DNA of 64,000 bases from Promethearchaeota archaeon (GCA_011364925.1 RDOA01000006.1:32484-96483); one strand, 5' to 3'. Positions 2,335-54,617 are shown, numbered from the stretch's first letter. Translations and numbers: made by a program. Notes: generated by a model not told the origin, from the letters alone.

Positions 2335-4065
2335 TTACTTAAATACCTTCACTTCACGAGCCTCGAGTTTTTCAAGTGAAGCAGGAAACTTTTTTAGGTT
2401 ATTACGTTCAATATTCAAATATTGAAGCGAAGAAAGTAATTCAATTGATTCTGGTAAATTTATAATTGAATTACTTCTTAAAAATAAATATTTTAAAGAT
2501 TTCAATTTACCAATTGAATCAGGAATATTAATTAACTCATTATTTCCGAGATATAAATACTTCAAATTTTCAAGGTTGCCAATAGCGTTAGGAATCTCTT
2601 TCAAATTGTTGTAGTATAAATAGAGTCGTTTAAGGGATTTCAAATCTCCGATTGAATCAGGGATCGTATTTATATTATTTTTGCCCAAATCCAAATTTTC
2701 TAAAGTAGATAGAGATCCTATAGAAGTTGGAATTGTTTCTAAACGATTAAAGCCTAACATCAAATTTTTTAGTCTTGGTAATTTTCCTATAGATGCAGTT
2801 AAACTGATCAGTTTATTTGTAGAAATATCAAGCTCTCTTAGCGAATTCAATGACCCTATTGACTCTGGGAGTGCTTTTAATTGATTTTTGCTTAAATCTA
2901 ATATTTCAAGAGAACTTAAATTACCAAGGGATTCGGGCAATTTTGTTAATTTATTATCATATAAATCTAATTCTTTTAAAGTGGATAAACCTCCAATTGA
3001 ACTTGGAAGTTCTTCTAGTTCGTTGCGATCAACTTTTAAAGATTCGAGATTTTTTAAATTAGATATCGATTCGGGAAGAGATTTTAGCATATTTCTATCG
3101 AGTTTAAGAGATTTGAGGGATTTTAGGTTTCCAATATTCGGTAATTCAGTTAACTGATTGTTAGTTATCTCCAATTTCAGAAGATTCTCAAGATTATTAA
3201 TGGAATTAGGTAATTCCGTTAGGAAATTAGAAGTAACATCTAAATTTTCTAAAGCTTCAAGCGAACCAATAGATTCGGGAAGTGATGGTAGCTTATTAGA
3301 TGTCAGTCCAAAATACTTAAGATTTTTTAGATCACCAATTGAATCAGGTAAATATGTCAAGTTATTACTTTTTAAAAATAAGGAAGATAAGGTAGAAAGG
3401 TTACCTATAGATTCTGGTAACTTTATTAACTCATTATTCCTAAGATTAAGTCTATTTAATGATCTTAATAAGCTAATGTTGTTAGGTAGCGAAATTAGGT
3501 GATTACCTCCTAAATATAAGAGTTCTAAAGATTTGAGGTTTTTAATTGAATCTGGTATTTCAATTATCTCATTGTGACTTAAATCTAAGGTTTGTAAATT
3601 TACTAAATCTCCTATGGATTCTGGAATTTTACTTAAAGAATTCTCGCTTAAGTCCAATAAAGTAAGTTGATATAAAGAACTAATTGTCTCTGGCAATTCT
3701 GTTAACAAATTCGTTTCCAAGTATAATTCCTTTAATGATGATAAAGAATAAATCGCTTTAGGCAATTTTATTATCCGATTTTCACTTAAATCTAATGTTT
3801 CAAGTGATGAAAGAAAAAAGAGTTCTTCTGGTATTACTTTTAGCTTATTTCCTCTTACTAGTAATTTTTTTAAAAAAGAAAGCGTTGTTATTTTTTCTGG
3901 AATCATAGTCATTCCACACGAAAATAAACTAAGTCCGATAATATGATCGTTCTCAATTTTAAATCCAACAGTATAGCTTTGAAGATCTGAAACCTCTGGA
4001 ATAGTAAACCCTATTAATTTTTCTAAGTAATTAAGAAATCTTTTTTCTTCTTGACTATTTGTCAT
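2335..4065 (-). CDS. leucine-rich repeat (LRR) protein, about 22 tandem 23-aa repeats, no other recognisable domain
   Basis: 576 aa. After an N-terminal cap of about 60 aa, the whole protein is LxxLxLxxNxLxxLPxSIGxLxx units (for example LKSLKLDRNMLKSLPESISNLKN). Confidence 0.9.
   Translation of the reverse strand: MTNSQEEKRFLNYLEKLIGFTIPEVSDLQSYTVGFKIENDHIIGLSLFSCGMTMIPEKITTLSFLKKLLVRGNKLKVIPEELFFLSSLETLDLSENRIIKLPKAIYSLSSLKELYLETNLLTELPETISSLYQLTLLDLSENSLSKIPESIGDLVNLQTLDLSHNEIIEIPDSIKNLKSLELLYLGGNHLISLPNNISLLRSLNRLNLRNNELIKLPESIGNLSTLSSLFLKSNNLTYLPDSIGDLKNLKYFGLTSNKLPSLPESIGSLEALENLDVTSNFLTELPNSINNLENLLKLEITNNQLTELPNIGNLKSLKSLKLDRNMLKSLPESISNLKNLESLKVDRNELEELPSSIGGLSTLKELDLYDNKLTKLPESLGNLSSLEILDLSKNQLKALPESIGSLNSLRELDISTNKLISLTASIGKLPRLKNLMLGFNRLETIPTSIGSLSTLENLDLGKNNINTIPDSIGDLKSLKRLYLYYNNLKEIPNAIGNLENLKYLYLGNNELINIPDSIGKLKSLKYLFLRSNSIINLPESIELLSSLQYLNIERNNLKKFPASLEKLEAREVKVFK
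2355..3885 (-). repeat. 69-bp-periodic coding tandem repeat (the LRR units)
   Basis: The protein-level 23-aa periodicity gives a degenerate 69-nt DNA periodicity. This also produces a chain of spurious antisense ORFs (2681-3502 +). Confidence 0.7.
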
Positions 4066-16777: not shown

Positions 16778-16926
16778 TACTGCGCTATCCTTCCTTTAAA
16801 TAACAATTTTAATTGAAAGATTAAATCTATTAAGTTTTCATAATAACAAAATTTATTTAGTCTTATATTCTTTTCTATTATAGAGTATAGTTTACCCTAT
16901 ATTATTACAAGAACTTAAAGATATTC

Positions 16927-17364
16927 ATGATCGACGAAGAAGACGACGAGGAAGTTTTAAAGAAAAAGTGGTCTTTGAAGACTATTCTAAAAAATCTTGT
17001 TTTAATTGGCTTGATTGTTATTGGTATAGCATTTATGTATATCGGTGGACCCGATCCAACAATGAATCTTATTATTGGTTTTACATTCATTTGTTTAGGA
17101 GTTTCAATCATTCAAATGAAAAAACCCCCGAAAGATCCAGTAAGACAGACATTAACAATATTGAAATGCAATAATTGTGGATCGATTGAGGTAAAGAACT
17201 ACGAAGAAGGAGATTTTGTATTTAAATCAAAGGGAGTTTGCACCAAGTGCGCTGGATCTCTGGAAGTAATTCAGATTTATAGTGTCAAATTAAAGAAAGC
17301 TAAAGATAAGGGTAAAAAACTAGAGAAAGACAAAGAAACCTTGAAACAGACTATAAAGATTTAA
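16927..17364 (+). CDS. small 2-TM membrane protein with a cytoplasmic zinc ribbon and a Lys-rich tail
   Basis: 145 aa with an acidic N-terminus, two hydrophobic helices, and the zinc ribbon CNNCGS...CTKCAGS. Confidence 0.5.
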   Translation: MIDEEDDEEVLKKKWSLKTILKNLVLIGLIVIGIAFMYIGGPDPTMNLIIGFTFICLGVSIIQMKKPPKDPVRQTLTILKCNNCGSIEVKNYEEGDFVFKSKGVCTKCAGSLEVIQIYSVKLKKAKDKGKKLEKDKETLKQTIKI

Positions 17365-17409
17365 ATTTTATAATGGTTAGGTGTTTCTCTAATTTTAAAC
17401 AAAATAGGG

Positions 17410-17838
17410 ATGGGCGGAACTTTTGATCATCTCCATGATGGGCATAAGTATTTATTAAGAACAGCTTTAAAATTATCGAATTTCGTTGAGATTGGGTTAA
17501 CATCCCAAGAATTACTAAAAAATAAAAAAGCTTCTTCTAAACTCGAAGATTATGATACAAGAAAAGCGAATTTAAAGGCGTTTATTAGTTCTTTTACTGA
17601 CATAAACAGAATTAACATCGTAGAGATTAAGGATTGGGACGATATGGCCAGATATTCTCAAGATCCTGATTATGAGGGATTAATTTTAAGTCAAGAAACA
17701 TATTTAAATGCCGTTAAATTGAACGAGCTTAGAGAAGAGAAAGGTCTTGCTCCACTTATTTTGATTGTAATTCCTCTTCTAAAAGATGAAAATAACAAGA
17801 TAATTAACTCAACGGCTATTAGAGAAAAATTAGAGTAG
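17410..17838 (+). CDS. phosphopantetheine adenylyltransferase, archaeal/eukaryotic type (cytidylyltransferase fold)
   Basis: GGTFDHLHDGH (the nucleotidyltransferase (T/H)xGH motif) starts at residue 2 of the ATG-initiated ORF. The first beta strand (ILNKIGM) is encoded upstream, in frame, after the stop at 17371-17373. The true start is probably ATT at 17392 (see findings). Confidence 0.8.
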   Translation: MGGTFDHLHDGHKYLLRTALKLSNFVEIGLTSQELLKNKKASSKLEDYDTRKANLKAFISSFTDINRINIVEIKDWDDMARYSQDPDYEGLILSQETYLNAVKLNELREEKGLAPLILIVIPLLKDENNKIINSTAIREKLE

Positions 17839-17843
17839 GAAAA

Positions 17844-17849
17844 TTTTTT
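17844..17849 (+). terminator. T6 tract directly after the PPAT stop (candidate terminator)
   Basis: The sequence aaattttttag begins 6 nt after the TAG at 17836-17838. Confidence 0.3.
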
Positions 17850-17904
17850 AGTGAAGATTACTAAACTACTATTGTAATTAATGAATACTTGAGATGAGAA
17901 AATT

Positions 17905-17994
17905 TTGAAAAGTCATAGAGATATTTTATCTATCAAGGACAATTTCAATCAAGTATCATTTTTCTTCAAATTCTTTATTTTGCCAAGGGAATAA
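17905..17994 (+). promoter_or_regulatory. candidate Phe-rich leader peptide ORF (29 codons) upstream of pheS-pheT-pheA
   Basis: My translation from TTG 17905 to TAA 17992 is MKSHRDILSIKDNFNQVSFFFKFFILPRE. Codons 17959-17976 are TTT TTC TTC AAA TTC TTT. Confidence 0.35.
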
Positions 17995-18023
17995 CAATCT
18001 GATCGTAAATTTTTTCCCTTGGC
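17982..18023 (+). promoter_or_regulatory. perfect 9-bp hairpin overlapping the end of the leader ORF
   Basis: GCCAAGGGA (17982-17990) pairs with TCCCTTGGC (18015-18023) around a 24-nt loop. The 5' arm covers the last codons of the leader ORF. A T6 tract lies at 18010-18015. Confidence 0.4.
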
Positions 18024-18034
18024 TGCTGATATTT

Positions 18035-18091
18035 AGTTGAATATTCTCTTTTAAAGAAAATTACTGGTTTATTCAACTGTTTTGTATTGTT
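18035..18091 (+). terminator. second hairpin followed by a U-rich tail (terminator-like)
   Basis: AGTTGAATA (18035-18043) pairs with TATTCAACT (18070-18078), followed by GTTTTGTATTGTT. The element lies about 110 nt upstream of the pheS ATG. Confidence 0.3.
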
Positions 18092-18199
18092 CTAATTCAT
18101 GAAAGAATAAATTAAAACGATATGCTCCACGAAAGATTTAAAAAGGTTAGAGATTTAGAAAAAATATAACGAAAAGCAAATAATTTTTGATTTTTAGAT

Positions 18200-19735
18200 A
18201 TGACAATCAAATTAAAGAAACAAGTAATAGAAATTCTCAGTGTACTTAAGAAAAAGAAAACTGAACAGATTGCATCATTATTAGCAAATGAGTTGAATAT
18301 AGATTATATTGTTCTTATGGCAGCTGTCAACGATCTAATTGAATACGATTTGGGAGGCTTTAAAGAAGAAGAAATAAATCAGATATCTTTAAACGATGAA
18401 GGACGCAAATATTTGGAGGAGGGATTACCCGAAAATCAATTATTAGAAATAATGAGGGTTTCTAATGCTAAGGAGATTAGCATGGAAGACTTACTAAGTA
18501 AATCTAAGTTAGATAAGCACATTTTTTATATCGGACTTTCAAACATGAGAAAAAATCGTTGGATTGCCCAAAGTAAAGCAACAGGAGAAAATAAGATATT
18601 TTTAGTAACTGAAAAATTTCCAGAAACGGATGTTGAAAAATTTTTAAAGTCGTTTAAAGCGCAACCCACCCGTGATTATTCAAAATTATCAAAAAGTGAA
18701 TTAATACAATATGATCTCTTAAATAAAAGAAAATTGTTTACGAAACAAAACAAAACGCAGCGTTCAATCTTTCTTACTGACAAGGGTAAATCAATTAAAA
18801 TGTCTGATATAAAAGAATTGAAGTACATTAGTAAAATTACATCTGAAATGCTCAGTTCTGGTACTTGGAGGAATTACGATTTAAAACCTTTTGATGTGTC
18901 TAAGTCAGGTCCTACTTTAAAAGCAGGGAAAATTCACCCATTAATTAGACTTATCAACGAAATTAGAGAAGTTTTCATTTCAATGGGTTTTACCGAAATA
19001 AGAGGTCCCATTGTAGAAAGCGCATTCTTTAATTTTGATGCACTGTTTCAACCACAGGATCATCCTGCCAGGGAATTACAGGACACATTTTATCTTAACA
19101 ATCCTAAATTTGCAAAATTACCTGAAAAAGATCGGGTACTGGCTGTTAAAGCAACTCACGAAAATGGTGGAGATTCTAAGTCGCTTGGTTGGAGATACCA
19201 ATGGGATGAGAATATTGCTAAGCAAACAGTATTAAGAACGCATACAACAGCAACAACCATGAGACGATTAGCACAATTTTATAGAACTAATGATAAAACT
19301 CCTGTAAAAGTTTTTTGCATAGATAGAGTTTTTAGAAATGAGAAATTAGATAAATCCCATTTAGCAGAGTTTACTCAAATAGAAGGCATTGTTATTGATG
19401 AGAATGTTAATTTGAGCGATTTGATTGGCTTACTTTCAGAATTTTACAGGAAAATAGGATTTAAAAAGATTATCACGCGTCCTGGATTTTTTCCATATAC
19501 CGAACCAAGCATGGAAGTTTCAGTTTATTATGATAAGTTAGGTGAGTGGTTAGAGATGGGAGGATCAGGAATTTTCAGACCAGAAGTCACATATCCTTGG
19601 GGCATCAAGGATCCTACTAGAGTTTTAGCTTGGGGTCAAGGCCTAGAACGTATTGCGATGTTATACTACGACCGGCAAGATATGAGAGATTTATATATTA
19701 ATCCAATAAAGTGGTTACGGCAGCAACCATATTAA
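18200..19735 (+). CDS. pheS: phenylalanyl-tRNA synthetase alpha subunit, archaeal/eukaryotic type
   Basis: 511 aa with N-terminal winged-helix-like repeats and a class II core with motifs FRNE, GSGIFRPEV and AWGQGLERI. Confidence 0.95.
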   Translation: MTIKLKKQVIEILSVLKKKKTEQIASLLANELNIDYIVLMAAVNDLIEYDLGGFKEEEINQISLNDEGRKYLEEGLPENQLLEIMRVSNAKEISMEDLLSKSKLDKHIFYIGLSNMRKNRWIAQSKATGENKIFLVTEKFPETDVEKFLKSFKAQPTRDYSKLSKSELIQYDLLNKRKLFTKQNKTQRSIFLTDKGKSIKMSDIKELKYISKITSEMLSSGTWRNYDLKPFDVSKSGPTLKAGKIHPLIRLINEIREVFISMGFTEIRGPIVESAFFNFDALFQPQDHPARELQDTFYLNNPKFAKLPEKDRVLAVKATHENGGDSKSLGWRYQWDENIAKQTVLRTHTTATTMRRLAQFYRTNDKTPVKVFCIDRVFRNEKLDKSHLAEFTQIEGIVIDENVNLSDLIGLLSEFYRKIGFKKIITRPGFFPYTEPSMEVSVYYDKLGEWLEMGGSGIFRPEVTYPWGIKDPTRVLAWGQGLERIAMLYYDRQDMRDLYINPIKWLRQQPY

Positions 19736-19833
19736 ATTGAGGTGAAAATATAATACCAACCCTTGAATTAAAAATTGATAGGTTAGAAAGATTAGTTGGA
19801 AAGAATCTAAATATAGATGAGTTAGAATACGAC

Positions 19834-21429
19834 TTGCAATGGATTGGATTAGATCTAGAGGATATTAATAGAGAAGAACAGACGATTAAAATTGAATATA
19901 ATCCTAATAGACCAGATTTCTCATCACCAGAGGGAATAGCAAGGGCTTTGCAGGGTTATTATGAAGTTAAATTAGGTGTTCCAACATTTGACATACAACT
20001 AGGTGAAGTCGTACTTAATGTAGATCCTAGTGTTAAAAAAGTAAGACCATATATAGTATGCGGGATCATCCGTAATATAGATTTAGACGAAGAAGAAGTT
20101 GCTACTCTAATGAATATCCAAGAACACCTTCACTGGGCTGTTGGAAGGGACAGAAAAAAGGTCGCAATTGGTGTACATGATTTAGATAAGGTCAAACCGC
20201 CCTATAGGTATACTGCTGTAAAACCAGATTCAGTGAGTTTTACTCCTTTACATGGAGATGGATATCCAATGAATTTAGAAGAGATTCTACTCCTTCATGA
20301 TAAAGGTATAGAATATGCTCACATTTTAGAGGGAAAAGAGGTGTACCCCATCATTTTTGATGATAATAACGAAGTGCTATCCTTTCCACCAGTTATTAAC
20401 GGAGTTCTTACAACTGTTACTGATGAAACTAAAAATTTGTTCTTAGATTTGACCGGGACTGATTTTAATGCAGTGAATCTTGCATTAAACATTTTGTCCA
20501 CTACTTTATCAGACATGGGGGCTAAAATCGAAAGTGTTACAGTAAATTATGAAGGAGAAAAAGAGATCGTAACTCCTAATTTAGATTCTACTAAGTGGCA
20601 AGTTGAGATTGACTTTATAAATAGTTACCTTGGTTTAAAGTTAACTCCATCTGATATGATAAAGTGCTTTCAGAAAGTTCGGATCGATGCTAAAGAATCT
20701 AAGAGAAAAGGCTTTTTGGACATATATATACCTGCTTTTCGTGGAGATATTATGCATCCCGTCGATCTAACTGAGGAAGTTGCCATTGGATACGGTTATT
20801 TTAATATTCCAAAAACAATCAGAGAGGGATGTATAGGAGAATACCATCCAGTTCAAGTCTTTTCGGACAAAATACGAACAATTATGATTGGAGCAGGTTA
20901 TCTAGAAGTTATTAATTTCATTTTATCTAGCTCTGAAAAACAATATACTTTAATGAGCCAAAAATTCAACGAATCAAAGCTGATTCAGATTGCAAATCCA
21001 GTTTCAAAAGAATATAATACAACTAGAACAACAATTTTACCTAATTTAATGGATACAATACGTTTTAATAGGTCCGAAGAAAAACCAATTAGGATTTTTG
21101 AAGTTGGAGATGTTGTAGTTCTAGCGCCTAAAGAAGAAACTGGAGCTAAGCGCGAAATTCACCTTTCAGCAGTATCTTATCATGAGGACGCGGACTTTAC
21201 TGAAATTAGATCAACTTTAGATTTTATTATGACTGCGCTCGGATTATATAATGAATTTGAGGTAAAAGTTGGGAGTAATCTTAGCTATATTAATGGACGT
21301 TATGGCGATATTTATTTTAAAGGCACCAAGATTGGAGAAATCGGAGAAATCAATCCAGAGGTTCTGTTAAATTTTAAATTAGAATTTCCAGTTGCGGCAT
21401 TAGAATTAAATTTAGAAAAAGTTCTGTAA
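19834..21429 (+). CDS. pheT: phenylalanyl-tRNA synthetase beta subunit, archaeal type
   Basis: The 531 aa are counted from TTG 19834. Another 27 in-frame codons upstream (IPTLELKIDRLERLVGKNLNIDELEYD) match the conserved archaeal PheT N-terminus (MPT...DLERLVGK). The real start is therefore probably ATA at 19750/19753, behind a GAGGTGA Shine-Dalgarno-like site. Confidence 0.9.
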   Translation: MQWIGLDLEDINREEQTIKIEYNPNRPDFSSPEGIARALQGYYEVKLGVPTFDIQLGEVVLNVDPSVKKVRPYIVCGIIRNIDLDEEEVATLMNIQEHLHWAVGRDRKKVAIGVHDLDKVKPPYRYTAVKPDSVSFTPLHGDGYPMNLEEILLLHDKGIEYAHILEGKEVYPIIFDDNNEVLSFPPVINGVLTTVTDETKNLFLDLTGTDFNAVNLALNILSTTLSDMGAKIESVTVNYEGEKEIVTPNLDSTKWQVEIDFINSYLGLKLTPSDMIKCFQKVRIDAKESKRKGFLDIYIPAFRGDIMHPVDLTEEVAIGYGYFNIPKTIREGCIGEYHPVQVFSDKIRTIMIGAGYLEVINFILSSSEKQYTLMSQKFNESKLIQIANPVSKEYNTTRTTILPNLMDTIRFNRSEEKPIRIFEVGDVVVLAPKEETGAKREIHLSAVSYHEDADFTEIRSTLDFIMTALGLYNEFEVKVGSNLSYINGRYGDIYFKGTKIGEIGEINPEVLLNFKLEFPVAALELNLEKVL

Positions 21430-21469: not shown

Positions 21470-22570
21470 ATGAGCGAAGAAGAAAAAGTAATTAAAGAAT
21501 TGGAAGAGTTAAGAAAGAATATTGATGACATTGATGATACTATTGTTGATCTTCTTAATAAAAGAGCTAATGCGGTGATTAAAATTGGAAATCTCAAGAA
21601 ATCTTTGAATTTAGAAATTTTTCAACCAGCAAGAGAAGAAGAGATAAAGAACAGGCTGGTTAATAAGTCAACTATTTTCAAAAAAAGTAGTATCGAGGCA
21701 ATTTGGAAAGAAATAATTAGTGCAAGCAAATTGATTCAAGGAACTATTACAAAAGTAGGGTTTCTTGGTCCTAATGGCACTTTCACACATCAAGCGGCTC
21801 TTGATTACTTTGCTAAGGCGGGAACTCAATTTGTTCCCTTTGATTCAATGCAAGAAATCTTCGATAATATAGATAAAAAAACACTTGACTTTGGGATTGT
21901 TCCTATTGAGAATAGTCTTCAGGGAACAGTACGAGAAACTCTAGATTTGCTAATCGAAAATGATTTATTTATTTATGGTGAAATTGAGGTAAGAGTGATC
22001 CAAAATTTAATTTCGTTAAAGGCTACAGAAATATCGGATATCAAACATATTTTTTCTCACCCTCAAGCTTTTGCACAGACAAGAATTTGGTTAAAATCAA
22101 ATTTGCCAACAGCTAAAATTATAGAGGTACACTCAACTGCTGAAGCTGTTCGTAGAGTTAGAAAGTTGGAGGATAAATCTTATGCGGCTATTGGGACTGA
22201 ATTTGCTGCTGAAATTTATGAGTTAAAAATTTTAAGCTCAAATATCGAGGACGAGAAGTCTAATTATACGAGATTCTTAATAATATCTAAAAATGAAAAT
22301 CCATTGAAAACCGAACATATGAAAACATCGATTGTTTTTGTTACAAAACATATCCCTGGAGCTCTATATTGGGTATTAAAAATATTCTCTGATGCAGATA
22401 TAAATTTATCAAAAATAGAATCGAGACCACGTAGAAAAGGAAAATGGGAATATATCTTCTTCATGGATTTTGAAGCCGATAAAGATAATCCTAAAGCGGT
22501 AAAAGCCCTTGAGCTAATGAAAGCAAATGTGATTTGGCATAAAGTTCTTGGATCTTTCCCTATTAAATAA
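21470..22570 (+). CDS. pheA: bifunctional chorismate mutase / prephenate dehydratase (P-protein)
   Basis: 366 aa with an N-terminal CM helix (LRKNIDDIDDTIVDLLNKRA), a PDT domain (VGFLGPNGTFTHQAA, NYTRFLII), and a C-terminal ACT domain with ESRP. Confidence 0.9.
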   Translation: MSEEEKVIKELEELRKNIDDIDDTIVDLLNKRANAVIKIGNLKKSLNLEIFQPAREEEIKNRLVNKSTIFKKSSIEAIWKEIISASKLIQGTITKVGFLGPNGTFTHQAALDYFAKAGTQFVPFDSMQEIFDNIDKKTLDFGIVPIENSLQGTVRETLDLLIENDLFIYGEIEVRVIQNLISLKATEISDIKHIFSHPQAFAQTRIWLKSNLPTAKIIEVHSTAEAVRRVRKLEDKSYAAIGTEFAAEIYELKILSSNIEDEKSNYTRFLIISKNENPLKTEHMKTSIVFVTKHIPGALYWVLKIFSDADINLSKIESRPRRKGKWEYIFFMDFEADKDNPKAVKALELMKANVIWHKVLGSFPIK

Positions 22571-40837: not shown

Positions 40838-42700
40838 TCATACTATTCCTTTTATAAATTCAATAATTTCCTGAACTGGAGGATGTTCCGGATCATAGAA
40901 AAGAAAATTTTTGGCGTATTCTTTTAGCTTTATTGTATAATTTCTGGCTAGGTTTTCATTTGAAGATAAATCCTTTATTTTATCTAATAAAATCTCTTGA
41001 TCATAAACAATATATAGGAATTTTTCATCCAAAAATGAATATTTACTTGTCTCTCTAAAGGTTTTATTTATAAAATCAAGGCAAATCACTGGTGTTCCTA
41101 CTAACATAGATTCTAAAATAGTTGTTGATTTTTGGGATATTAAGAGATTTGAAGATTTAATTATATCTAAAATCCTTACATCCTTGACTATTATTGGATT
41201 GATACCTAGGTTTGAACAAATTTTTTTATGAATATAACCATCTTCTCGAGGATGGAGCTTGATAAGAAAATTTTGTTCTAAATTCAATTGTTTTAGAGAT
41301 TTTGCGACTACGCTGATTATTTTTTCATTTGACTCGTCATCAATAGGATTTGTCGTTAAAAGGATTGTGAACTTCTCTTTATTAAATTCGTATTTTCTTC
41401 CATCAAACATGTCGCGAACTTCTGACAATTCAATAAATTTATTCTTATGAAAATATTCATATCGAGGGATTCCTGTAACTTTTATATTTTGTTCATTTAC
41501 TCCTTTTTGAATATAATACTTTTTATCTGATTCTCCTCCTAATATGTAATATTTAACATCGTTTTTAGTAACCATTTCCTCAATGATAGGAATAGCCGCG
41601 TGAGGTATGAATAAAGTTGGTATTTCTTTCAATTTACAATAGCTTGTGATTAATTTCATAGTACCCATAAAATCATTAGCAATAACCACCATTTTTGGAG
41701 GATTCTTTTTTATGAACTGTAAGAAATTTAATAATACGTTATAGGTCCTTATTAAATCTATCATATGCCCTTTTAAGTAGTATATTTTTAACAAATTCTT
41801 TAGATTTAATGATTGATATTCTAAATTTTTCGTTATTTTATTTTTATAGCGTTTAAGTAATATCCTATTCTGAATAATGCATTTGATAATAGTATTTAGA
41901 TTTTTTATCGAAGTAGAAATATCACTTTTATACCTAATAGAATTGAATAGTTTATCAGACTTTAGAATATTATGAATTGGTAAAATGCTTTTTATTTGGT
42001 TTTCTGAGTTAGCAAAAAAAATCAAATTCTTTGTATTATTTTGTTTGGCTTTATTATTCTTCCGGTGTTTCTTGAATAAAATCTTTTTAAGAAATAAACC
42101 CAAAGTTGTTAAAAAAAATTGTAGCGTACTCACATTACTTAAGAAATTGTTACTTATTAAAGGAAAACTATCTTTGAACCATTTAATGTTCATCTTTATT
42201 TTTTTGAAGAAAATTAGTGAATTCTTATTTATATTAAGTAAGAAAATTTCATCATATTCTCTCTCTTGAAGAATTTTTTTGATTAATTCGAATTTTCCAA
42301 AAAATTCATTGAGAAATAAAGAAAGTTCAAACTCAAATGCTTTGGCTAAGAAAATCCCTTTAAAAGAGTAAATTTGTGAGGATAATAAATTTTGATACAA
42401 GGTTCTTAGTGTTTGCTTAGTTTTTTGTATCACACTGCCTTTGATATCTCTAAAAATTAGGCGATCAATATCAACTCTAAATTTTGGTAAGGATTCGGTA
42501 CATATCTCTGACTGAACATTTAAAACTTCATTTCTTTCTGTAATAACAGTAATGTCTACAGTTTTTAAATATTTTTTCTGGATATAAGAAATAGTAAAAT
42601 CCAATTTTGAAGAATTGTAATAATTTAGGAATTTCTTTATTATTGTTGGCAGATGTTCACTTTTATAGTTGAAAAAGTTGTATAAAATCAATACCTTCAT
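40838..42700 (-). CDS. large uncharacterised GT-B-like transferase (TagF / KpsC-KpsS capsule-transferase-like C-terminal half)
   Basis: 620 aa. The C-terminal part reads FIPHAAIP..., FTILLTTNP..., LIKLHPRE..., LLISQKSTTILESMLVGTPVICLD, which resembles CDP-glycerol glycerophosphotransferase or CMP-sugar capsule transferases. The N-terminal half is unassigned. Confidence 0.45.
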   Translation of the reverse strand: MKVLILYNFFNYKSEHLPTIIKKFLNYYNSSKLDFTISYIQKKYLKTVDITVITERNEVLNVQSEICTESLPKFRVDIDRLIFRDIKGSVIQKTKQTLRTLYQNLLSSQIYSFKGIFLAKAFEFELSLFLNEFFGKFELIKKILQEREYDEIFLLNINKNSLIFFKKIKMNIKWFKDSFPLISNNFLSNVSTLQFFLTTLGLFLKKILFKKHRKNNKAKQNNTKNLIFFANSENQIKSILPIHNILKSDKLFNSIRYKSDISTSIKNLNTIIKCIIQNRILLKRYKNKITKNLEYQSLNLKNLLKIYYLKGHMIDLIRTYNVLLNFLQFIKKNPPKMVVIANDFMGTMKLITSYCKLKEIPTLFIPHAAIPIIEEMVTKNDVKYYILGGESDKKYYIQKGVNEQNIKVTGIPRYEYFHKNKFIELSEVRDMFDGRKYEFNKEKFTILLTTNPIDDESNEKIISVVAKSLKQLNLEQNFLIKLHPREDGYIHKKICSNLGINPIIVKDVRILDIIKSSNLLISQKSTTILESMLVGTPVICLDFINKTFRETSKYSFLDEKFLYIVYDQEILLDKIKDLSSNENLARNYTIKLKEYAKNFLFYDPEHPPVQEIIEFIKGIV

Positions 42701-52720: not shown

Positions 52721-52850
52721 CTTGTAAAAAATGTGATTGTTAATGATAAGTTAAAAAGCTAAAAAAATTTTTCCAATTCTTACAAAGAGAGAGATCTTTA
52801 AGTCTGAAAAATGATATATTTTTTGATGAAATTGATGAATTCCCATAATA

Positions 52851-54617
52851 TTAATTTGGCATTAAATCTGGAGGAGGTGTCTTAAGGCAGAAACCACATT
52901 TCCCAAATGATTTTATAGTTTGCTCCCAGCAGTGTTTATGATAACTTCGTTCGCAATAAGGACAATCTGTATGACATGTTTCCTCCTCTGATCCTGCTAT
53001 CTTTAAGCTACAAGTCGGACAACCAATTTTATGGCATATAACGCAAGAAACTACTGACACTTCAAAGATTTTTTTGGATATTGCATTAAAAAGGTCTACT
53101 AAATAACTAAAAGGAGACCAATCGTCAAAGAAGGATTTAAAAGAAGATTGGAGATCTTGCTTAATCTTTTCATGCGATTCTAATTCAAATTCATTAGTGA
53201 TTTTAATGGAAGGAACAGTCATGGGGTAATCCACTGGTAGATCAATTTGAAATTGGAATATTAAATCTTGTGTTTTCATCTTACCTTTCATGTCCACATT
53301 CAATATTGAAGTTGATGGATTGTATTCGATCTTCTTATAGTGTTCCTTTAATAGTTCAATTTCAAAGTTAATACGTGAATTTTTATCTACTAACCACGCA
53401 AGTTCTCTGACAATTTCAACGGGTTCCGATTCGCCTTCTGTCCAATTTTTATAAGATTTCAGTTCGGTTAAAGGAGTCCTAATGATTTCTTGTAAATGGG
53501 AAGACAAATTGACTTCTGGGGGTTTAGGATAGGATTCAAGGTTCACATCTAAAAGATATTCTTTAAATCCGTACGTTACTAAATGAACTTTTAATTTTGT
53601 CATATCATCAGTAACTAAATCACATTGATATTCACCATGGATCTTCTTTGATTCTTGTTCAATATCCTTTATGAAGAATAATTTGCCTTCGAGTTCGTGT
53701 AGTATATCAACTATATGGGAAGGGTTATTGGGATTCCAAGCTCTTAATACTTCCAAATTTTGATATACATCACCAATCAGTTTACGAGCTTCTTCTGGAA
53801 CATTTATTAAAGGTTGAGAGGGGAAATTTGTAAAATTAATATTGATTATGAATGTTTTCGTAAGTGTAATTGTTATATAAATATTTAAATCTCCCCTTTC
53901 TTGAGAATTTTGATCGTACGCATATTCCTGTTGAATTAATCCAATTTCTGTGTTTAAAGCTACGCTAGTATTTGAATGATCTGCATAGAGTTCCGGTTCG
54001 GTTAACTCTGGGGTTTCTTTAGATATATTTTCATTTATTTTAAGAACATCATTTTGTTTTGAAGTCTCGCTCGAATCCTTTTCATAAGACAAATCTTCAG
54101 AGTTCTCAGTAGGAGTTACAAATTGCTCGTACTCAAAATCAGGAGGATACGCACTTAAATCAGGCGTAATATATTTTACTTCCTCAGGTTCTTTTTCTAA
54201 CAATTCTCCATCGCGTTTTGTTGTTTCTAAAGGTTCTTCGACAAGTCGATCGTTGTGCTCAATACGATCTTCCAAAATCGTGGTTACCTGCTGATCTATG
54301 TCCCTTTCTGAAACATTTAGAGCTTGAAGGATTTTCACTTTTAGTTCTTGAAGTATTTCTAAGACAGATGAATTCTCAGACCAATCATTTTCTGCTTTTA
54401 AATGAATATCGCCTAATAATTCCTTGAATTCTTTATGATAAATTAATTTTGGAGGAGTATCAGGAAAATCTTCAGTGAATTTGATTTCTAGTTCGTACTT
54501 TGCGTCAGGTGTCTCATAAACATATCCAAATAGATGTTCAATATTACCTGAAACCATCCAAAATGAGAACTTCGCAGCGATTTTCTGAGCTTCCTTTAAA
54601 ATTCTTTGTTTATCCAT
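52851..54617 (-). CDS. four tandem UBC-fold (UEV/RWD-like, no catalytic Cys) domains plus a C-terminal C4HC3 RING/PHD-like zinc finger
   Basis: 588 aa. Four units each have a (Y/F)Pxx(x)P turn and a downstream W...helix: FPDTPPKLIY...DWSENSSVLEILQEL; FPSQPLINV...AWNPNNPSHIVDILHEL; YPKPPEVNL...NWTEGESEPVEIVREL; YPMTVPSIKI...DWSPFSYLVDLFNAI. The C-terminus reads CVIC-x4-CPTC-x11-CH-x2-CPYC-x4-H-x-HC-x10-CGFC. Confidence 0.6.
   Translation of the reverse strand: MDKQRILKEAQKIAAKFSFWMVSGNIEHLFGYVYETPDAKYELEIKFTEDFPDTPPKLIYHKEFKELLGDIHLKAENDWSENSSVLEILQELKVKILQALNVSERDIDQQVTTILEDRIEHNDRLVEEPLETTKRDGELLEKEPEEVKYITPDLSAYPPDFEYEQFVTPTENSEDLSYEKDSSETSKQNDVLKINENISKETPELTEPELYADHSNTSVALNTEIGLIQQEYAYDQNSQERGDLNIYITITLTKTFIININFTNFPSQPLINVPEEARKLIGDVYQNLEVLRAWNPNNPSHIVDILHELEGKLFFIKDIEQESKKIHGEYQCDLVTDDMTKLKVHLVTYGFKEYLLDVNLESYPKPPEVNLSSHLQEIIRTPLTELKSYKNWTEGESEPVEIVRELAWLVDKNSRINFEIELLKEHYKKIEYNPSTSILNVDMKGKMKTQDLIFQFQIDLPVDYPMTVPSIKITNEFELESHEKIKQDLQSSFKSFFDDWSPFSYLVDLFNAISKKIFEVSVVSCVICHKIGCPTCSLKIAGSEEETCHTDCPYCERSYHKHCWEQTIKSFGKCGFCLKTPPPDLMPN

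Follow-up and report, generated by a model that had tools for sequence, protein, structure and literature searches.

The 361-nt spacer upstream of pheS in a stretch of Lokiarchaeon (Asgard) DNA holds a conserved upstream ORF (uORF) whose run of Phe codons lies between two RNA stems. Our best explanation of this element, to which we assign a probability of about one half, is that it acts in cis as a translated leader, through which the pheS-pheT-pheA genes are informed of the Phe-tRNA(Phe) supply. The simplest function for such a leader, by analogy with the bacterial pheL and pheM leaders, would be the sensing of Phe-tRNA(Phe) through the speed of the ribosome. The output step of the leader is not a classical terminator/antiterminator switch. 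Below we set out the comparative evidence for the uORF and its flanking stems, and we weigh the alternatives at the points where that evidence bears on them.

The locus and its relatives

The stretch of DNA analysed here (the window) spans 64,000 nt with a GC content of ~31%, and the leader and its neighbours lie on the + strand. Upstream of the spacer is a cytidylyltransferase-like gene (17410-17838), called PPAT in the initial annotation, which ends at 17838 and is followed, as had been recorded, by a T6 at 17844-17849. Downstream are pheS (18200-19735), pheT (about 19753-21429, with a re-assigned start) and pheA (21470-22570), the last encoding a CM-PDT-ACT protein. Pfam matches bear out the identities proposed for these three genes, all of which are Phe-specific and are presumed to be the regulated genes, and the order pheT then pheA was found in 56 loci. 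The spacer had been singled out as the longest co-directional gap in the window; it is among the longest but is not unique in this respect, since a 360-nt gap precedes 40838-42700.

Using PheS of the window as a query we recovered 47 species-level genomes labelled Promethearchaeota/Lokiarchaeia (69-89% identity); a second PheS protein search, aimed at other Asgard classes, returned only relatives of at least 73% identity. Genomes and metagenome sequences together gave a pooled sample of 98 distinct orthologous leaders.

Searches for known RNA families gave no match. In particular, Rfam cmscan at gathering thresholds returned 0 matches over the whole window, a search of 17700-18350 at E <= 10 returned no leader, T-box or riboswitch family (Phe_leader included), and ARAGORN identified no tRNA-like gene in the 361-nt spacer. 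These results argue against a T-box or other tRNA-sensing riboswitch with a specifier loop and T-box antiterminator. The segment UGCGGAUUU, which we took to resemble the 5' end of tRNA-Phe, received no support for that likeness from the tRNA or Rfam searches. Ahead of the other two aminoacyl-tRNA synthetase genes of the window (Trp/Tyr-RS and IleRS) we found no cognate-codon leader.

Several other features of the window deserve mention. The start of pheT is not TTG 19834 (region 19736-19833; loci L001-L047 just 3' of pheS). The conserved N-terminus of PheT, xPTLELKIDRLERL, begins at ~19753, 6 nt past a strong Shine-Dalgarno motif, GAGGTGA (19740-19746), and the codon in first position varies: the window and its clade have ATA, another clade has ATT, a few loci have CTG or TTG, and others have ATG. 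It therefore appears that a non-canonical start codon serves for the PheRS beta subunit in many Lokiarchaeia. Two genes on the - strand (52851-54617 and 2335-4065) encode one protein with weak matches to the RWD and ubiquitin-conjugating (UQ_con) domains and one large leucine-rich-repeat protein, both eukaryote-like and consistent with an Asgard host. A long cluster at 24055-62179, which contains glycosyltransferase, epimerase/dehydratase, sulfatase/phosphodiesterase, ATP-sulfurylase and polysaccharide-synthesis genes and falls to a lower GC content (24-30%) at ~28-44 kb, is probably a variable cell-surface glycan island.

A conserved leader ORF with a run of Phe codons

The initial annotation had proposed a Phe-rich leader ORF in the spacer, and that ORF is present: it extends from TTG at 17905 to TAA at 17992-17994 and encodes LKSHRDILSIKDNFNQVSFFFKFFILPRE in 29 codons before the stop, with Phe specified by five of the six codons at 17959-17976 (FFFKFF). 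The uORF is open and begins with a start codon in 96 of the 98 distinct orthologous leaders. The weakness of its TTG start, which had been a caveat, is resolved by the orthologues, where ATG is used in 66 of these 96 leaders, TTG in 29 and GTG in one. The uORF is most often 29 codons long (63 of 96 leaders), and 38 of 39 genomes keep open, from the aligned start codon, the frame that runs into the hairpin described below. Over the span of the uORF we counted 0 in-frame stops across the sample, versus 158-404 in each of the five alternative frames (195 and 251 for the remaining two on the + strand; 158-404 for those of the minus strand), and the uORF thus holds up as a real element.

Conservation of the leader is confined to blocks. 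When the spacer was compared by BLAST with the orthologous loci, positions 17941-18030 were recognisable in 36 loci and positions 18089-18199 in 31, whereas 18031-18088 and the pheT-pheA spacer were recognisable in 0 of the same loci and the spacer 3' of pheA only in the four closest relatives. Because the leader blocks can be aligned and the neighbouring neutral spacers of the same genomes cannot, the leader blocks are under selection.

Within the uORF, the N-terminal ~15 residues vary and the C-terminus is conserved as S-F-x-F-x-F-F-[IN]-[LP]-P-R-[ED]-stop. With positions counted back from the Pro codon, Phe is found at -8 in 66 of 98 leaders, at -6 in 86, at -4 in 75 and at -3 in all 98. 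Both TTT and TTC are used at positions -7, -6 and -4, and the TTT/TTC ratios at conserved Phe positions are 61:25, 15:60 and 12:40. This alternation, which keeps long T-runs away, indicates that selection acts on Phe codons and not on a fixed nucleotide string. What is fixed at the end of the uORF is the third base of the Leu codon, the CCA and the rare AGG, and these are invariant because they form part of the hairpin arm.

Ten leader peptides looked up among 15 billion predicted proteins were not present there, and a search of NCBIfam with leader peptides returned no match. The comparative evidence places directly before Phe-specific genes a leader ORF with tandem cognate codons, as in a classical attenuator, and the pattern of conservation of this ORF indicates that it is almost certainly translated.

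Two RNA stems flank the Phe codons

The end of the uORF lies in a hairpin, which we call H1 (17982-18023). A 9-bp hairpin between GCCAAGGGA (17982-17990) and TCCCTTGGC (18015-18023) had been described previously; it is present and extends to 13 nt with 92% complementarity (arms 17982-17994 and 18011-18023), so that its 5' arm comprises the last base of the Leu codon, the Pro-Arg-Glu codons and the stop codon. H1 pairs in 97 of 97 sequences, with each of the nine core pairs paired in 94-100% of them, and it shows covariation; one pair, for example, is GC in 59 sequences, AU in 20 and GU in 18. Every one-sided change in H1 produces a G-U pair on the + strand and would produce a C-A mismatch on the - strand, and H1 is therefore an RNA hairpin of the coding strand. 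RNAalifold applied to 33 genomes returned a single consensus helix, H1, the loop of which varies in length from about 17 to 33 nt.

A second stem, S0, was discovered by folding the sequences individually. Its 5' strand, AAUGA-A-UACUUGA (17880-17892), pairs with its 3' strand, UCAAGUAUCAUU (17949-17960), in both minimum free energy (MFE) and centroid folds. S0 encloses the start of the uORF and its first 15 codons, and its 3' strand overlaps uORF codons 15-19, as far as the first Phe codon. Across 33 genomes 77% of cells in the S0 alignment are paired, versus 34-52% in slid controls; one pair is GC in 11 genomes, AU in 7 and UA in 7, the L017 clade swaps CUUGA/UCAAG for AAUCGU/ACGAUU, and the duplex has a z-score of -2.1 against shuffles. 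The Phe run is unpaired in the MFE and centroid folds of the window and forms a mostly single-stranded linker that separates S0 from H1. Together S0 and H1 have the look of a compact RNA with two stems, about 150 nt long. The reading frame, the Phe run and the arms of H1 with compensatory changes, whose conservation in related genomes had been suggested as a check on the initial annotation, are thus all found across the orthologous leaders.

H1 is followed by a single-stranded tail, UGCGGAU (UGCUGAU in the window; 18024-18030), each position of which is conserved in 73-100% of 98 sequences. A search for pairing partners of this tail yielded only the base of H1 itself and scattered GC-rich codons in pheS.

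Putative promoters and the downstream half of the spacer

A BRE/TATA-like motif, AAAATTTTTTAG (17840-17851; P1), is nearly invariant in 39 loci and is similar to ACAAAATTTATTTA, a conserved block of the gene 16927 promoter. On the strength of this resemblance and conservation P1 is likely to be the leader promoter, with a predicted transcription start near 17873. P1 is kept in loci where the upstream neighbour is divergent and is not PPAT (L018, L020, L035 and L046), and its T6 is accordingly not a mere terminator of PPAT; the leader module as a whole likewise persists where the upstream gene is divergent or other than PPAT. A motif almost identical to P1, GGAAAAATTTTTTTAG, is found at about 52759-52774 (- strand), 54 nt upstream of the IleRS start, where, as for P1, it can be read either as a promoter or as the terminator of the preceding gene.

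The template for these motifs merits its own description. Between the DUF1512 gene (- strand) and ORF 16927 (+ strand), which encodes an acidic protein that begins MIDEEDD, a block of ~50 nt within 16778-16926 (TTCATAATAACAAAATTTATT...TATTCTTTTCTATTATAAAG.ATAG) is near invariant in 33 genomes. A strong promoter accompanied by an upstream element is the probable identity of this block, which provides a useful template for Lokiarchaeial promoter motifs. The window's own genes were too few for a promoter consensus derived from them to be conclusive.

Closer to pheS lies a canonical BRE/TATA-like motif, CGAAAGATTTAAAAA (CGAAAGATTTAAAWA), which we call P2 (18130-18144). P2 is strongly conserved and precedes the ATG of pheS by 63 nt; a further copy, GATTTAGAAAAAATATAA (18152-18169), precedes it by 48 nt, and both share with P1 a likeness to the promoter block of gene 16927, which is itself strongly conserved. 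Judged by its consensus, P2 is likely to be a proximal pheS promoter. The initial annotation had cautioned that TATA-like tracts near 18131-18172 could place the pheS transcription start downstream of the leader, and this caution stands: because the conserved P2 lies between the leader and pheS, pheS may own a separate transcription start.

The region between the UGCGGAU tail and P2 consists of two parts. The first, a variable spacer (18031-18085) that includes the second hairpin of the initial annotation (18035-18078), has no BLAST conservation and fold z-scores near 0, and we found no structure in it. Its sequence is free, while its length is almost fixed (~66 nt in most loci), as opposed to neutral spacer, which varies more than two-fold. 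The second part is a conserved box, UUCUAAUUCAAGAUAGAGCAAUUU (18086-18121), with two overlapping candidate helices, X (18089-18094/18103-18108) and Y (18086-18091/18116-18121). Each of these is about 74% paired, compared with 38-53% in slid controls, and cells with double changes in helix Y number 42, the shuffles giving 19±4. The abundance of U-G pairs in both helices implies a + strand RNA. With moderate confidence, on the basis of these comparisons, we suggest that the functional + strand RNA extends past H1 into the box. Two metagenome loci, L128 (830-1030) and L134 (224-353), contain no box and a single TATA-like copy; they are natural deletion variants in which the uORF, H1 and a UGCGGAU-like tail are kept.

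Linkage of the element to pheS

We scanned metagenomes with a DNA pattern that describes the end of the uORF and its hairpin and is blind to pheS. The scan returned 100 stretches, about 17 of which were chance matches that contain no uORF and about 80 of which were true instances. In every true instance with enough downstream sequence the next gene was pheS, at a distance of 184-220 nt or, in two cases, of about 130 nt, and the scan found no element away from pheS. The tie to Phe genes that had been proposed for the window is thus exclusive to pheS, usually in the arrangement pheS-pheT-pheA. Between the uORF stop and the ATG of pheS lie 205 nt in the window and 198-209 nt in most sequences; the interval is about 130 nt in L128 and L134, both of which are devoid of the box.

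This linkage weighs on one alternative, namely that the element is an independent small gene, encoding a microprotein or a dual-function small RNA, that is transcribed from its own P1 and uses H1 as a 3' stabiliser or terminator, with pheS transcribed from P2 only. Under this alternative co-regulation or inheritance would account for the place of the gene beside pheS. The spacing of 198-209 nt is, however, fixed, as compared with the 23-61 nt spanned in 53 of 56 of the same loci by the unconserved, neutral spacer between pheT and pheA, and the element never occurs away from pheS. An independent gene would suit an element flanked by P1-like and P2-like promoter motifs, and the two stems do resemble a compact small RNA; yet candidate + strand RNA helices are found downstream of H1. 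Similarly, one subclade carries the tail GGCUGCGGA-UUUUUU after H1, as might a terminator, but most lineages have no T-run there. Finally, a microprotein would have to make do with about 12 conserved residues, and these are partly imposed by the hairpin. On balance we consider an independent gene unlikely.

Phe codons or an arrest peptide

The conserved C-terminus raises the alternative that the uORF encodes a sensor which works by nascent-peptide arrest, as SpeFL and TnaC do, and in which the C-terminal peptide would fold in the exit tunnel and arrest the ribosome on or close to the stop codon or the Pro-Arg codons. Halted there, the ribosome would keep H1 open and would mask the UGCGGAU tail from a termination or cleavage factor, and the Phe residues would be structural rather than 'hungry' codons. 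SpeFL of E. coli ends F26-x-F28-x-F30-F31-N-A-R-stop, its effector domain comprising Phe26, Phe28, Phe30, Phe31, Asn32, Ala33, Arg34 and the stop, and it has a hairpin over its 3' end and a 257-nt spacer (10.1101/604074). The Lokiarchaeial peptide shares with SpeFL a Phe-rich C-terminus (F-x-F-x-F-F-N in SpeFL), and its locus shares with SpeFL-speF and TnaC-tnaA a uORF of 24-34 codons, a hairpin encompassing the uORF's 3' end, a spacer of about 200-260 nt and an output that needs no intrinsic terminator (10.1101/604074).

The residue between the conserved Phe pairs of F-x-F-x-F-F is mainly polar (K, N, E, Q, R or T), and this fixed arrangement could reflect a constraint on the peptide instead of codon sensing. 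A peptide resident in the exit tunnel would also fit an N-terminus that varies at constant total length, and a rare AGG codon follows the Pro codon. However, the P-R-[ED] residues, a rare CTG and the rare AGG are fully accounted for by the fixed hairpin sequence GCCAAGRGA. Moreover, the leader peptides display no detectable sequence homology to SpeFL or TnaC and no conserved N-terminal sensor domain or motif of the kind of HIRRXXH in SpeFL. A profile of 42 leader peptides searched against PDB chains at E <= 10 gave one weak, unrelated match and neither SpeFL nor TnaC, and NCBIfam, as noted above, gave none. The expected signal here, limitation for Phe, fits hungry codons better than it fits ligand binding of the SpeFL/TnaC kind, and a Phe-rich structural motif that stands by chance before a Phe operon is less parsimonious than codon sensing. 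We consider an arrest peptide a serious rival, though about as unlikely as an independent small gene.

The output step

The initial annotation had read the locus as a ribosome-mediated attenuator. The sensor part of that reading, a leader peptide with Phe codons, is upheld by the comparisons above; its classical terminator/antiterminator part is not, since we found neither a conserved T-run nor an alternative pairing. The T6 at 18010-18015 is present in the window, but its placement inside H1 is specific to the window and is not conserved. Similarly, the second 9-bp hairpin (18035-18043/18070-18078) exists in the window, but its stretch, with the GTTTTGTATTGTT tail, was recognisable in 0 loci and the fold z-scores are near 0; neither the T6 nor this hairpin with its tail qualifies as a conserved terminator. 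T-runs of at least 5 within 22 nt past H1 occur in 24 of 98 leaders, versus 12 of 98 in a control stretch, and a consensus terminator scan of 17000-19000 returned 0 sites; between the leader ORF and the first gene there is accordingly no conserved intrinsic terminator of the classical kind. A helix scan of the 98-sequence alignment for antiterminator alternatives yielded only short helices of 5 bp, and duplex z-scores for the 5' strand of S0 or the 3' arm of H1 against the box, P2 or the pheS start ranged from +0.2 to -0.4, which amounts to no signal. In agreement with what the initial annotation had itself conceded, then, these scans revealed no mutually exclusive pairing that a ribosome could govern.

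A conserved terminator being absent, the uORF might act after transcription: its translation, or a ribosome stalled on it, would alter how a long P1-pheS mRNA is processed or degraded or, for example by way of helices X and Y, how accessible the pheS start is. X and Y are indeed overlapping alternatives, and Cys-rich uORFs of mycobacteria are described as attenuators of operonic gene expression that respond to cysteine (10.1101/834739). The strands of the leader are, however, not significantly complementary to the box, P2 or the pheS start region, and 205 nt separate the uORF stop from the pheS start. We regard purely post-transcriptional control as improbable. An element that acts only at the level of DNA (operators or promoters, with an incidental ORF), or through a minus-strand transcript, is close to refuted and very improbable: the arms of H1 are also a DNA inverted repeat and the window folds just as well when its minus strand is taken, but the loop of about 17 to 33 nt is unlike that of a dimeric operator, and the stop-codon counts given above together with the polarity of the G-U pairs (among the nine core pairs of 97 sequences, 31 cells are G-U and would each be a C-A mismatch on the minus strand) lead us to reject a minus-strand ORF or RNA.

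Proposed mechanism

What the comparisons establish is an ORF with Phe codons, a pair of stems, a linkage that is exclusive to pheS, a spacing that is fixed and an RNA of + strand polarity; codon sensing, the reading we favour, would accommodate these in the following way. P1 (17840-17851) would start the leader RNA near 17873, and the 5' part of this RNA would fold into S0 around the start of the uORF. The Phe codons would lie in a single-stranded linker of ~20 nt, with S0 on one side and H1 on the other, and the stop codon, together with the four sense codons before it, would supply the 5' arm of H1. With ample Phe-tRNA, the ribosome would reach the stop codon and depart, and S0 and H1 would refold. 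When Phe-tRNA is scarce, the ribosome would wait on the Phe run, where its footprint, to judge from geometry, may hold S0 open and fray the base of H1.

The position of the ribosome would in this way decide whether transcripts from P1 reach pheS, or survive. The decision could be executed by leaky termination at T-tracts, by factor-dependent termination of untranslated RNA (aCPSF1/FttA acting as the archaeal counterpart of Rho-type polarity), by RNA cleavage or by control of RNA stability; one possibility is that the ribosome gates aCPSF1/FttA-dependent termination, or cleavage of the RNA, at UGCGGAU, the conserved tail. To our knowledge archaea lack Rho, and aCPSF1/FttA would need to fill its role; likewise, we know of no established effect of hairpins on archaeal RNA polymerase. 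Against the whole scheme, pheS may be transcribed mainly from P2.

The leader so envisaged has clear parallels in bacteria. Like E. coli pheL-pheA and pheM-pheST (Rfam Phe_leader), it is a short ORF with a Phe run directly before genes for PheRS and chorismate mutase/prephenate dehydratase, it belongs to the same size class (14-30 codons), conservation is limited to its regulatory codons, an RNA stem overlaps its final part, and ribosome speed is the proposed means of sensing charged tRNA(Phe). Unlike the bacterial leaders it resides in an archaeon, matches no Rfam family at E <= 10 and no NCBIfam leader peptide, and possesses neither a conserved hairpin-plus-U-tract terminator nor an antiterminator alternative. 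Instead of the overlapping 1:2/2:3/3:4 segments of bacterial attenuators it has a codon run between two independent stems, and about 205 nt and a TATA-like motif separate it from the gene.

Two further comparisons are instructive. The Cys-rich, leaderless uORFs of mycobacteria are described as short ORFs with runs of one amino acid before cognate genes that act as amino-acid-responsive attenuators (10.1101/834739); they differ from the Lokiarchaeial leader in domain of life and in amino acid, and here two covarying stems flank the Phe run. Eukaryotic uORFs (GCN4-type, or the arginine attenuator peptide) similarly tie amino-acid status to downstream expression through an upstream ORF, but in the Lokiarchaeial locus there is no sign of scanning or reinitiation, and the codon run and stems point to a prokaryote-style mechanism.

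Implications

Leader-peptide control is a textbook case of transcription-translation coupling and is regarded as bacterial. Our search of the archaeal literature for leader-peptide attenuation found no example, and recent archaeal Ribo-seq work mentions uORFs as candidates only. We propose, more tentatively than the sensing function itself, that a ribosome on Phe codons between two stems controls an Asgard operon for PheRS and Phe biosynthesis in a manner that involves neither a terminator/antiterminator switch nor Rho, in which case the element would be the first amino-acid-sensing leader peptide in archaea. With Lokiarchaeia available in culture and an element this short, the hypothesis is directly testable. 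If it is true, Asgard archaea read the speed of the ribosome on a uORF as a metabolic sensor, the leader is a concrete natural substrate for archaeal coupling and factor-dependent termination, and leader control works even where the classical alternative-hairpin design is absent.
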